Counted from the first letter of the stretch, positions 36,118-42,509 are shown. The stretch is DNA of 64,000 bases from Escherichia coli (GCF_003334765.1 NZ_QOWT01000001.1); one strand, 5' to 3'. The notes: a model not told the origin generated them from the sequence alone. Numbers and translations: made by a program.

Positions 36118-36753
36118 TCAGATGTCAACTTTCTCTTTGTATTCACAAAGATCTTCAATAATACAAGAGCCACAGCGGGGCTTGCGGGCAATGCAGGTAT
36201 AACGCCCGTGCAGGATCAACCAATGGTGGCAGTCGACTTTAAACTCTGCTGGAACCACTTTCAGTAGCTTTTCTTCTACCTGTTCGACGTTTTTCCCCGG
36301 CGCAAATTGAGTACGATTACAAACGCGGAAAATGTGCGTGTCGACAGCAATAGTCGGCCAGCCGAATGCAGTGTTTAATACGACGTTGGCTGTTTTACGA
36401 CCTACGCCGGGCAGGGCTTCAAGCGCAGCACGATCTTCCGGAACCTCGCCATTATGCTGCTCCAGCAAGATACGGCAGGTTTTGATGATATTTTCTGCTT
36501 TGCTGTTATAAAGCCCAATCGTTTTGATATAGGTTTTCACCCCTTCAACGCCCAGTTCAAGCATCGCTGCAGGCGTATTCGCCACCGGGTAGAGTTTCGC
36601 CGTCGCCTTATTAACACTGACATCGGTCGCCTGAGCGGAAAGCAGTACGGCAATCAGCAATTCAAAAGGCGAACTGAAATTAAGCTCGGTGGTGGGATGA
36701 GGATTGTTCTCACGCAGGCGAGTGAGGATCTCCAGGCGTTTTGCTTTATTCAT
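36118..36753 (-). CDS. nth: Endonuclease III (211 aa)
   Basis: ORF-track 211 aa; HhH-GPD motif and C-terminal 4Fe-4S cluster (CxxxxxxCxxCxxxxxC); last gene of the rsx-nth cluster. Confidence 0.95.
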   Translation of the reverse strand: MNKAKRLEILTRLRENNPHPTTELNFSSPFELLIAVLLSAQATDVSVNKATAKLYPVANTPAAMLELGVEGVKTYIKTIGLYNSKAENIIKTCRILLEQHNGEVPEDRAALEALPGVGRKTANVVLNTAFGWPTIAVDTHIFRVCNRTQFAPGKNVEQVEEKLLKVVPAEFKVDCHHWLILHGRYTCIARKPRCGSCIIEDLCEYKEKVDI

Positions 36754-37448
36754 CAGACATTCCCTGTTTCACCGTTTGGCAATGCACGTTCTGCAGCTGC
36801 TTCAGCACGGCGCTTTTTCATTCTTTCATCAATCAGGTATTTTCCTGCCAGCATCAGTCCCAGGCCAATAAATGCACCTGGTGGCAGCATCGCCAGCAGG
36901 AAAGGGGAGTCGGTGTGGAAAATCTCCACGCGTAATACTTTTGCCCAGCTACCTAACAGCGCATCTGCACCGTCAAACAATGTGCCATTGCCGATAATTT
37001 CGCGTAGTGAACCCAGCACGAACATGGCGCAGGTTGCGCCCATACCAATTGAAAAGCCGTCCAGTGCCGAAAGCGCCGGACCTTTTTTGGCGGCGAAGGC
37101 TTCAGCGCGGCCCACAACGATACAGTTAGTGACAATCAGCGGAATAAAAATCCCTAATGATTGATACAGGCCAAAGGCGTAGGCGTTGATCAGCATCTGT
37201 ACAGCGCTGACCACCGAGGCGATGATCATCACGTAAATGGGAATGCGGATCTCGGCTGGCGTCCAGTGACGCAGCGTCGAAATGGTCAGGTTGGTCAGCG
37301 TCAGTACCAGCGTAGTCGCAAGTCCTAAACCCAGAGCGTTAGTGGCAGTGGACGTGACCGCCAACAGAGGACAAAGGCCGAGCAACTGGACCAGCGCAGA
37401 GTTGTTTTTCCACAACCCCTGAACAATAACGTCTTTAATTTCGCTCAC
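36753..37448 (-). CDS. rsxE: Rnf/Rsx electron-transport complex subunit E (231 aa)
   Basis: ORF-track 231 aa integral membrane protein; stop overlaps the nth start by 1 nt. Confidence 0.93.
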
Positions 37449-37451
37449 GCT

Positions 37452-39134: not shown

Positions 39135-41357
39135 TTAGTCCTCGTTTACAACCTTCTGCTGGGCGGCTTTTTTGGCCTGAGCGCGGGCAATAGCCGCGGC
39201 AACTGCCGCTTTGCGCGGATCAACCTGTTCTTCTGGTACCGCATTAGCCTGTTGCTGTTCCAGCTTGCGTGCTTTGGCGCGTGCAATAGCCGCTTCGACG
39301 GCAGCTTTGCGCGGATCAACCTGTTCTTCTGGCTCCGCATTAGCCGGTTGCTGTTCCCGTTTGCGCGCTTTGGCTCGGGCAATAGCGGCTTCGACGGCGG
39401 CTTTGCGCGGATCGACCTGTTGTTCTGGCTCGGCATTAGCCTGTTGCTGTTCCAGCTTGCGTGCTTTGGCACGGGCAATAGCGGCTTCGACGGCGGCTTT
39501 GCGCGGATCGACCTGTTCTTCTGGTTCCGCATTAGCCTGTTGCTGTTCCAGCTTGCGCGCTTTGGCACGGGCAATAGCGGCTTCGACGGCGGCTTTGCGC
39601 GGATCGACCTGTTGTTCTGGTTCCGCATTAGCCTGTTGCTGTTCCAGCTTGCGCGCTTTGGCGCGGGCGATAGCTGCTTCAACGGCAGTTTTACGTGGAT
39701 CAGCAACGGTTGCTGCGTCGTTAGTTTGCTGCAGTTCTGCCTGTTTCGCTCTGGCTTGCGCTTTACGGGCTTCCCGTGCTGCAATAATTGCACTGTTATC
39801 CGGGCGTTCGCCCGCTTTAATCACAATAGGCTGTGTAGCCTGGGCCTGTTTCTCTTTCACCCGCGCCAGAGCGGCAGCAATCGCATCTTTATCTTTGGCT
39901 GCAGGTTGAACGGCTGCGCTCTTATGTCGTTCAAGGCGAGCCGCTTTTTCGCGCTCCAGACGAGCCTGGCGCGCTTCGAAACGCGCTTTGGCTTCTGCGG
40001 CGCGCTTTTCTTCCTGACGAATAGCCGCAATTTCAGCTTTTTCCTGACGGAAATATTGCACCAGGGGAATATTGCTCGGGCAAACCCACGCGCAAGCCCC
40101 ACATTCAATGCAATCAGCAATGTTATGCGTGGTAGCTTTATCGTGTTGCTGACCTTTGCTGAACCAGTACAACTGTTGCGGCAAAAGATCCGCAGGGCAG
40201 GCGTCAGCACAGGCGCTACACCGGATGCAGCTTTGTTCTTCCTGTGGTTCGCCAAGTTCATTGGCAGAGGGAGCCAACAGACAGTTGGTAATCTTTACGA
40301 CCGGGACATCCAGCCATGGCAAGGTAAAGCCCATTAGCGGGCCACCCATAATCACCATTTGATCGGCAGAGGGGCAGAATCCGGCATCATTCAATAAATG
40401 ACGCACTGGCGTCCCCAGCCGTGCCCAGACGTTGCCCGGGCGAGCGATTGCTTCGCCAGTCAGGGTTACAACACGCTCGGTAATCGGCTCGCCATCAATA
40501 ACGGCACGTTTCACTGCATAAGCAGTGCCGACGTTTTGCATTAATACGCCGATATCGGATGAACGCCCGCCATGTGGAACCTGCTTCCCGGTCAGAATGT
40601 AGGTTAATTGTTTAGCACCGCCAGAAGGATATTTGGTTGGAATCACCCGCAGAGAAATATCGTTAGAGTCCGCCAGCACCGCGCGCAGCATGGAAATCGC
40701 CTGCGGTTTGTTATCTTCAATGCCGATAAGAATTTCGCGTGGCTGCAGAATATGCGCAAGAATGCGAATACCCTCTACGACCTGAGCCGCGCAATCCTGC
40801 ATCAAACGGTCATCGGCGGTAATGTACGGCTCGCACTCAGCCGCGTTGATAATCAACGTTTCAATCTTATCTCCGCCACCCTGCAATTTAACGCCTGTCG
40901 GGAATCCTGCACCGCCCAGCCCGGCAACACCAAACTGATGTATGCGCTCGATTAACTCTTCGCGACTGCGAGTGCGATAATCGGCCCAGCCGTCGCGCGG
41001 GATCCAGCAGTCTTCACCATCGGCATCAATAATCACGCTTAATTCAGCTAAAGCTGAAGGATGAGCCGTAGAGTGGGGCGCAATAGCCGTAACGGTACCC
41101 GAGGTGGGCGCGTGAACAGGCAGCATTTTGCCGCGACCACGGGTAAGCGGCTGGCCGCGCAATACTTTATCGCCGACGCTAACGCACAACTCACCTTCAG
41201 CGCCAATATGCTGTTTCAGTGGAATAACAAAACGCTGCGCCAGGGGTACCTGGCGCAGGGGTGTACCGTTGGACTGGGTTTTCATCTCCGGTGGATGGAT
41301 GCCGCCGTTGAAATCCCAGATTTTATTTTTTCTGAATGCAGAGAATAACTTAAGCAT
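39135..41357 (-). CDS. rsxC: Rnf/Rsx complex subunit C (740 aa) with two 4Fe-4S ferredoxin motifs and a C-terminal 32-aa repeat array
   Basis: ORF-track 740 aa; [12 protein letters not shown] and [12 protein letters not shown] motifs; C-terminal repeats [32 protein letters not shown], about 6 copies. Confidence 0.95.
39150..39725. repeat. In-frame 96-bp tandem repeat array (about 6 copies, near-identical) inside the rsxC 3' coding region
   Basis: Marker ccgcattagcctgttgctgttccagcttgcg recurs with 96-nt period around 39238, 39336, 39432, 39528 and 39624; encodes the 32-aa Ala/Lys/Glu-rich repeat of RsxC. Confidence 0.85.
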
Positions 41358-41928
41358 GGTGTTCCACGGGAATGATACGCACGGGAATGGTGTTCAGATC
41401 CCATTTCCAGGAGTCAGGTGTTTCTGCGACCGGTTGCAACGAGATGCAGTGCGTCGGGCACGGATCAACACATAAATTGCAGCCCGTACAGAGATCACTC
41501 ATTACCGTATGCATGGCACGGGTAGCGCCAACGATGGCGTCTACCGGACACGCCTGAATACATTTAGTGCAGCCAATACAGTTATTTTCATCAATAACCG
41601 CCACCATCCGCGCAGGCGTTATCTCTTGCGCTTCGCCATCCAGCGGCTGCGGCTCGACATTAAGCAACTCGGCAATTTTTAGCATCACAGCTTCGCCACC
41701 TGGGGCGCAACGGTTGATTTTTTCACCGTTACAGCTGATGGCTTCCGCGTAGGGGCGACAGCCGGGATAACCGCACTGACCACACTGGCTCTGCGGTAAG
41801 ATTTCGTCAATTTTCTCAACGACCGGATCGTCTTCCACCGCAAAACGGCGGGAGGCATAACCCAGAATGGCGCCAAACGCCAGGCCCAGCAGGCTCACGG
41901 CGGCAACGGCAATCCAGATAGCATTCAT
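41350..41928 (-). CDS. rsxB: Rnf/Rsx complex subunit B (192 aa), Fe-S protein
   Basis: ORF-track 192 aa with multiple Cys clusters ([33 protein letters not shown]); overlaps rsxC by 8 nt. Confidence 0.93.
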
Positions 41929-42509
41929 TACAACTTCACCAAACCACTAAAGCCCATAAAGGCCAGAGACATAAGACCTGCGGTAATTAACGCAATGGCA
42001 TTACCGCGAAAAGGTGCCGGGACATCAGCCACAGCAAGGCGTTCGCGGATGGCGGCGAAGAGCACCATCACCAGCGAGAAACCGACAGCGGCGGAAAAAC
42101 CGTACAGCGCCGACTGCAAGAAATTGTGCCCGAGATTGATATTCAGCAACGCCACGCCGAGCACTGCACAGTTGGTGGTGATAAGCGGCAAAAAAATCCC
42201 CAGCAGACGGTAAAGCACCGGGCTGGTTTTGCGCACCACCATCTCGGTGAACTGCACGACCACAGCAATCACCAGAATAAATGCCAGGGTGCGCAGGTAA
42301 ATCAGATTAAGTGGGATCAAAATCCACGTATCGATAAGCCAGGCGCAAATAGACGCCAGCGTCATCACAAACGTTGTTGCCAGCCCCATGCCCATCGCGG
42401 TTTCCAGTTTTTTGGAAACCCCCATAAACGGACAGAGACCGAGAAACTTGACCAGTACAAAGTTATTGACCAGTACAGTTCCGACAAACAGTAACAGGTA
42501 GTCAGTCAT
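41928..42509 (-). CDS. rsxA: Rnf/Rsx complex subunit A (193 aa)
   Basis: ORF-track 193 aa hydrophobic protein; first rsx gene; stop overlaps the rsxB start by 1 nt. Confidence 0.93.

Follow-up and report, generated by a model that had tools for sequence, protein, structure and literature searches.

Do the tight gene junctions of the rsxABCDGE-nth operon of Escherichia coli couple the translation of its seven cistrons, and do they tie the output of the DNA glycosylase endonuclease III (Nth) to that of the Rsx membrane complex? The question is raised by a stretch of E. coli DNA of 64,000 nucleotides (nt) (GCF_003334765.1, NZ_QOWT01000001.1; hereafter the window, with positions counted from its first letter), whose minus strand carries rsxA-B-C-D-G-E-nth. 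An initial annotation of this DNA had taken the overlapping stop and start codons to imply stoichiometric co-translation of Rsx with Nth. The reading that we favour, with a probability of roughly 0.75, is that this is the known seven-gene operon and that its layout reflects ordinary compaction with at least partial translational coupling; what the data show are the gene identities, the junction geometry and how far it is conserved, and the coupling and any production ratios are what we infer.

The reported junctions exist and had been placed correctly; they form an already known, ordinary E. coli operon layout. In a megablast against 5,426 complete E. coli genomes, window positions 36000-43500 were 100% identical to K-12 MG1655, C600 and other strains, and the MG1655 annotation of this interval reads nth, rsxE, rsxG, rsxD, rsxC, rsxB, rsxA, ydgK and ydgT. 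When that annotation was mapped onto the window, all coding sequences proved intact except uidA and uidB. The six Rsx subunits A, B, C, D, G and E are all present and, like Nth, score above the curated NCBIfam cut-offs (Table 1). Their genes are contiguous and co-directional in the order A-B-C-D-G-E, which is identical in the 67 species whose loci span the whole operon. The name rsxABCDGE-nth comes from RegulonDB, as given in PMC5021804, and, going by its title, Gifford and Wallace 2000 (cited in PMC4014512) reports transcription of the endonuclease III gene as a terminal gene of an operon. E. coli Rsx is a SoxR-reducing system, and in an rpoS mutant all seven genes shift in the same direction, to higher expression (PMC2907692); co-expression of the seven is supported by this joint response to rpoS deletion.

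Junctions were read from the sequence and their coordinates confirmed by script. The overlaps reported in the initial annotation, of 1 nt at rsxA/rsxB, 8 nt at rsxB/rsxC and 1 nt at rsxE/nth, were all borne out by the window sequence, and the 3-nt gaps placed "at rsxD and rsxG" are right when taken to be those that follow each of these two genes. The direct abutment of rsxC and rsxD and the location on the minus strand had gone unmentioned, and the span given, 36753-42509, covers rsxA to rsxE without the body of nth (to 36118). The six junctions all fall at -8 to +3 and hence inside the range of stop-to-start distances, -8 to +10, that is predictive of termination-reinitiation (PMC10666635). 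Within the window, 8 of the 34 same-strand neighbour pairs fall at -8 to +3, six of them in the rsx operon and two in ydhIJK, and the next-closest pair, malX/malY, is at +9. Across E. coli, 707 of 2,987 co-directional pairs (24%) are spaced at -8 to +6 (Huber et al. 2023, PMC10666635), the commonest spacings being -4, -1 and -8 (PMC10666635), and the tightness of the rsx junctions is not above this genomic norm. Subunits of heteromeric complexes make up 30.4% of short-distance pairs versus 6.8% of the pairs separated by more than 20 nt, a 4.5-fold enrichment (PMC10666635), and the uniformly tight junctions of a six-subunit membrane complex fit this published pattern. As a separate observation, rsxC, rsxD, rsxG and rsxE (36753-41357, minus strand) share one reading frame, with single TAA stops and 0 or 1 sense codon between them; this is probably chance, because the shared frame is not conserved and other genera have junctions at +2, -4, +8 or +10.

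Table 1. Genes, junctions and signals of the rsxABCDGE-nth region, and convergent gene pairs, in window coordinates (aa, residues; SD, Shine-Dalgarno sequence)
Feature	Position	Strand	Details
rsxA	41928-42509	-	first cistron; 193 aa; NCBIfam NF003481 RsxA 364.7 bits, cut-off 240, aligned 1-192; weak SD
rsxB	41350-41928	-	192 aa; NF003475 RsxB 337.5 bits, cut-off 203; weak SD
rsxC	39135-41357	-	740 aa; NF003454 RsxC 868 bits, cut-off 345; weak SD
rsxD	38076-39134	-	352 aa; NF002011 RsxD 633.5 bits, cut-off 415; SD GAGGA within rsxC
rsxG	37452-38072	-	206 aa; NF002519 RsxG 361 bits, cut-off 178
rsxE	36753-37448	-	231 aa; GTG start; NF009070 RsxE 365.9 bits, cut-off 184; SD GGAG within rsxG
nth	36118-36753	-	endonuclease III; terminal cistron; 211 aa; NF007978 486.3 bits, cut-off 405, aligned 1-211
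rsxA/rsxB junction	41930-41926	-	TAATG; -1 (1-nt overlap)
rsxB/rsxC junction	41357-41350	-	ATGCTTAA; -8 (8-nt overlap)
rsxC/rsxD junction	39137-39132	-	TAAATG; 0-nt gap, direct abutment
rsxD/rsxG junction	38078-38070	-	TAAaccATG; +3
rsxG/rsxE junction	37454-37446	-	TAAagcGTG; +3
rsxE/nth junction	36755-36751	-	TGATG; -1 (1-nt overlap)
Terminator-like hairpin in rsxC	41235-41258	-	perfect 10-bp GC-rich stem followed by CGTTTTGTTA; 100 nt into rsxC, 16 nt past PPE motif
Promoter-like site	42538-42566	-	TTGTCG-17-GATAAT in the 76-nt ydgK-rsxA spacer; consensus scan only
GC-rich hairpin	36092-36111		directly 3' of the nth stop; scan; T-run on plus strand only
punR(+) 8405-9337 / purR(-) 9334-10359	9334-9337		TTAA stop-stop overlap
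fumC(+) 60649-62052 / tus(-) 62049-62978	62049-62052		TTAA stop-stop overlap

The overlaps would vanish if the true start codons lay downstream of the annotated ones and the junctions were ordinary intergenic gaps, an outcome that the initial annotation itself had named as refuting it and that we hold to be scarcely credible on grounds of open reading frames (ORFs), profiles, conservation and structure. The start-codon evidence is partly circular in that it leans on the annotation, on which the Rsx starts rest, and the RsxC family profiles pick up the E. coli protein only at residue 12-13. In no ORF, however, does an ATG, GTG or TTG precede the annotated start, and therefore no gene is extendable upstream, and the homologous start codon is kept in all 67-80 other species examined, the GTG of E. 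coli rsxE being ATG in 74 of 80 species. The NCBIfam equivalog profiles begin at residue 1 for RsxA, RsxB, RsxD, RsxG, RsxE and Nth; for RsxC, whose profile begins at residue 12, the next in-frame start is not met until codon 25, inside the conserved region. Nth corresponds from Met1 to the 211-residue chain of PDB 2ABK, with 211/211 residues identical.

Conservation of the junctions was followed by scanning representative genomes with RsxE, which gave 80 loci, each from a different Enterobacteriaceae species and with 83-99% identity of its RsxE to the query; the stop-to-start distance was measured from the start to the first in-frame stop, and the whole operon was covered in 67 species. The rsxB/rsxC junction stands at -8 (ATGYTTAR) in 67 of 67 species, rsxA/rsxB at -1 in 59 and at +1 in 7 of the 67, and rsxC/rsxD at 0 in 64 of 67. 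At rsxD/rsxG the distance is +9 in 46 species, +3 in 14, +10 in 13 and +8 in 6; in most genera rsxD ends in ...CGC TAA and an SD (AAGGA) spans the stop, and Escherichia rsxD ends two codons later. The rsxG/rsxE distance is +3 in 50 species, +2 in 16, -4 in 11 and +4 in 2, and rsxE/nth stands at -1 in 49, -4 in 25, +1 in 4 and -8 in 2, which accounts for all 80. No junction of an intact operon lies beyond +10 in these species, and nth is never detached. Judging from these loci, it is proximity that is maintained and not exact sequence or overlap class, because the overlap class changes between genera. The three exceptions at rsxC/rsxD have premature stops in the rsxC repeat region, and in one of these loci several further genes are interrupted by premature stops as well. 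In Citrobacter amalonaticus AUH_CA_2023_1 (L029) premature stops interrupt rsxA, rsxC, rsxD, rsxG and nth and are most likely assembly errors, and the premature stops in the rsxC repeat region of L032 and L083 are most likely repeat-region frameshifts; all three loci were left out of the interpretation of junctions.

We then considered how each cistron might recruit ribosomes. SD:anti-SD pairing energy was predicted over the 20 nt before each start, with 56 window genes (median -5.8 kcal/mol) and random positions (median -2.2 kcal/mol) as reference. The initial annotation had proposed looking for ribosome-binding sites (RBS) within upstream coding regions, and rsxD (GAGGA, -5.9 kcal/mol), rsxG (-4.5), rsxE (GGAG, -6.4) and nth (CAGGGA, -5.1) do have a recognisable SD inside the preceding gene. 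The values for rsxA, rsxB and rsxC are -2.5, -3.8 and -3.3 kcal/mol, and the SD of rsxB and rsxC are essentially no better than random sequence, which is the pattern expected if both rely on reinitiation by the terminating ribosome. Coupling by unmasking of structure, in which upstream translation melts an inhibitory fold, was considered and found no support, since the predicted opening energies of the region -18 to +10 around the starts are ordinary (ranks 21-49 of 56).

The same layout could arise as a neutral by-product of compaction, with stop and start codons drifting together, AT-rich stops readily overlapping ATG, and each cistron initiated independently at its own RBS. The SD energies of rsxD, rsxG, rsxE and nth (-4.5 to -6.4 kcal/mol) accord with such a history, as do the shifts of spacing class between genera (rsxD/rsxG at +3 versus +9; rsxE/nth at -1, -4, +1 or -8), and among five native overlapping E. 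coli pairs that have been tested bioBF was initiated de novo without coupling (PMC6728339). The other four pairs were coupled, however (PMC6728339), no junction of an intact operon has opened beyond +10 in 80 species, rsxB/rsxC is invariant, and independent initiation of rsxB and rsxC would be poor with SD at random level. Taken together, we regard purely neutral compaction as unlikely.

Several points also weigh against coupling itself. The usable SD at rsxD, rsxG, rsxE and nth mean that independent initiation may dominate there, the opening energies are ordinary, and the spacing is not fixed (+3 to +10 at rsxD/rsxG and four classes at rsxE/nth), which also fits compaction without functional coupling. 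In the table of Burkhardt 2017 (eLife), rsxB is the only rsx gene that passes the expression filter, with a translation efficiency of 0.39; within operons, the ORFs differ in translation efficiency (Burkhardt 2017). From published measurements, coupling drops by 40-80% at +14 nt, its loss being placed at about +20 nt and its disappearance by about +38 nt (PMC6728339, PMC10666635), and reviews describe contexts in which the loss is large already at +3 to +5 (PMC12548453). With all of this considered, translational coupling at the rsx junctions is a plausible reading.

If at least partial coupling does operate, a ribosome terminating on one cistron would restart on the next by termination-reinitiation. 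This would probably matter most for rsxB and rsxC, where a weak SD coincides with an overlap with the upstream gene, and rsxD, rsxG, rsxE and nth could also initiate independently via the SD inside the upstream coding region. Coupling would aid co-expression of the six membrane-complex subunits and, by keeping ribosomes on the mRNA, counter Rho-dependent or hairpin termination. As the last cistron, nth would ride along, co-expressed with Rsx without being a subunit and not necessarily at 1:1.

One site of hairpin termination may lie within the operon itself. The strongest terminator-like site that our scan found on the minus strand is the hairpin inside rsxC (Table 1), and its position relative to the PPE motif fits the published NusA-dependent, EF-P-sensitive terminator inside rsxC, which terminates in vitro with NusA (Elgamal et al., PMC5021804); the longer transcript drops 1.8-fold in a delta-efp strain (PMC5021804). 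Since an internal terminator lowers the downstream transcript, it speaks against constant ratios along the operon. In Escherichia the hairpin is strong (about -18 to -25 kcal/mol), in many genera it is weak, and it is largely a consequence of codon choice in LRQ...LAQ; on these grounds we rejected the idea that a conserved rsxC terminator is the cause of the rsxB/rsxC overlap. Elsewhere in rsxC, the RsxC tail is encoded by a 96-nt (32-aa) unit repeated 5.4 times in tandem with 91% matching (39181-39702, minus strand). RsxC ranges from 516 to 824 aa across the 67 Enterobacteriaceae species, and only 4,356 of 5,425 E. coli genomes align unbroken across the query, which suggests that repeat copy number varies among E. 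coli.

Signals at the ends of the operon were sought by scanning. The promoter-like site in the spacer upstream of rsxA is a consensus match, and promoter-like sites in the rsx region do not exceed shuffle expectation; the consensus scan found none in rsxE upstream of nth. The hairpin that follows the nth stop likely marks the end of the operon transcript, a function on the minus strand that we infer. It lies in the 610-nt non-coding gap between nth and dtpA (35508-36117). No Rfam element matched at gathering score within 35400-43900.

To place the nth attachment in a wider context, we used a profile-free exhaustive search of 1.84 billion representative proteins and analysed the genomic context of seven RnfE proteins 41-52% identical to RsxE. 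In these distant loci nth directly follows rnfE at +14 (L084), at +7 (L086 and L087, a 644-kb genome) and at -4 (L089 and L091). In L090 a partial ORF of 26 residues, too short to identify, follows rnfE at -4; in L085 nth lies one ORF further downstream, and in L088 it is absent after rnfE. The remaining junctions of the distant rnf operons mostly fall at -8 to +9. A review of Rnf/Nqr evolution (PMC4014512) states that endonuclease III is absent from other bacteria's rnf operons and that no role in Rnf is known for it. A "Rosetta stone" fusion of RnfE to Nth was also looked for, and none occurs among the 150 best RnfE representatives, in which the long proteins are RnfE-RnfA, RnfG-RnfE or carry unrelated extensions. 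With no such fusion and with the arrangements of L088 and L085, Nth does not emerge as a conserved Rnf/Rsx component.

These findings bear on the stoichiometry proposed for Nth. Nth, of the HhH-GPD family, is a base-excision DNA glycosylase/apurinic-apyrimidinic (AP) lyase with a [4Fe-4S] cluster of its own, and the repair of iron-sulphur (Fe-S) clusters is not among its functions. The description of Nth as an "Fe-S repair enzyme" in the initial annotation was thus mistaken, as the NF007978 equivalog match and the identity with 2ABK make clear. The C-terminal Cys-X6-Cys-X2-Cys-X5-Cys cluster ligands are present (...YTCIARKPRCGSCIIEDLCEY..., residues about 187-203 in the 2ABK alignment). Stoichiometric co-translation with Rsx did not find support either. 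That coupling would enforce a fixed 1:1 production of Nth and Rsx, because Nth works with the complex, could be argued from the position of nth at -8 to +1 after rsxE/rnfE in 80 of 80 Enterobacteriaceae species, from its place after rnfE in most distant loci, and from both partners being Fe-S proteins. Nth is, however, a soluble DNA glycosylase and no known subunit of the complex, its association with rnf operons is broken in the ways described above, and none of the 150 representatives fuses the two. Moreover, reinitiation efficiency varies widely between gene pairs (PMC6728339), and therefore an overlap does not imply 1:1 output, and the rsxC terminator alters the transcript ratio along the operon. 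We consider a fixed 1:1 ratio highly improbable.

That the persistent attachment of nth to rsxE/rnfE reflects a functional link is likewise improbable, if very slightly less so: for example, Rsx might keep the [4Fe-4S] cluster of Nth reduced or active, as it does the [2Fe-2S] cluster of SoxR, and coupling would then make the enzyme beside its reductase. Literature searches returned nothing on a functional link between Rsx and Nth. Why many Gammaproteobacteria keep a DNA-repair glycosylase tightly attached as the final cistron of an operon for a membrane redox complex is a mildly open question, and a redox connection of Rsx with the Nth cluster, if true, would be of real interest. Otherwise the locus is of limited importance: it confirms textbook operon architecture and offers a clean example of complex-subunit genes spaced at -8 to +3 nt.

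Outside the operon, the initial annotation had also listed convergent 4-nt overlaps at punR/purR and fumC/tus, and both are exact (Table 1). The shared TTAA is read as TAA on both strands, and TTAA (or YTAR) is the tightest placement of two convergent stop codons. With no spacer at either pair, each transcript must end inside the partner gene; in our scan no terminator-like site turned up near fumC/tus and those near punR/purR were all weak, and transcriptional interference or antisense overlap is possible at both. Convergent overlaps occur less often than co-directional ones: of all overlaps, 84% are unidirectional (PMC10666635). sodC (+) and ydhK (-) are also convergent, with a 0-nt gap at 24142/24143. 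A second tightly packed operon, ydhIJK, absent from the list in the initial annotation, encodes a multi-subunit system, with a 1-nt overlap of ydhK and ydhJ (26155) and with ydhJ and ydhI 2 nt apart (27012-27015). At 53369/53370 the window lacks 1,039 nt of MG1655, such that a 4-nt microhomology, CACT, links uidA nt 1165 to uidB nt 397; the result is a broken fusion in which the native 4-nt uidA/uidB overlap is lost. This join was contiguous in 0 of 5,426 complete E. coli genomes; a gus deletion, either particular to the strain or engineered, or an error of assembly may account for it. In the ydhP-sodB spacer, 73 extra nt (12149-12221) begin like a repetitive extragenic palindromic (REP) element (CGGATGCGG...CATCCG), and the spacer measures 234 nt versus 161 nt in an MG1655-like record.

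Compared with known systems, the window operon has the same sequence, gene order, coordinates and products as rsxABCDGE-nth of E. coli K-12 (b1627-b1633), which encodes the SoxR-reducing Rsx complex and endonuclease III; the differences between the window and MG1655 (single-nucleotide polymorphisms, the extra REP unit and the uidA-uidB deletion) all lie outside it. Set beside the coupled gene pairs of Huber et al. (2019, 2023), among which no rsx junction was tested, the rsx spacings of -1, -8, 0 and +3 belong to the same predictive class, and genes for heteromeric complexes form the enriched category; the class found most often, -4 (ATGA), does not occur in the E. coli rsx operon and is seen at rsxG/rsxE and rsxE/nth in other genera. 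The Rnf (ferredoxin:NAD+ oxidoreductase) operons of other bacteria, whose complexes are represented by the structures 8AHX, 7ZC6 and 9ERI, encode six homologous subunits, again with tight junctions in the distant loci, and each of the three entries contains one D chain, consistent with a single copy of the D subunit per complex. These operons differ from that of E. coli in that gene order and accessory genes vary, in that nth is attached in the gammaproteobacterial type and not in all operons (PMC4014512; L088), and in that E. coli RsxC carries a long repeat extension.

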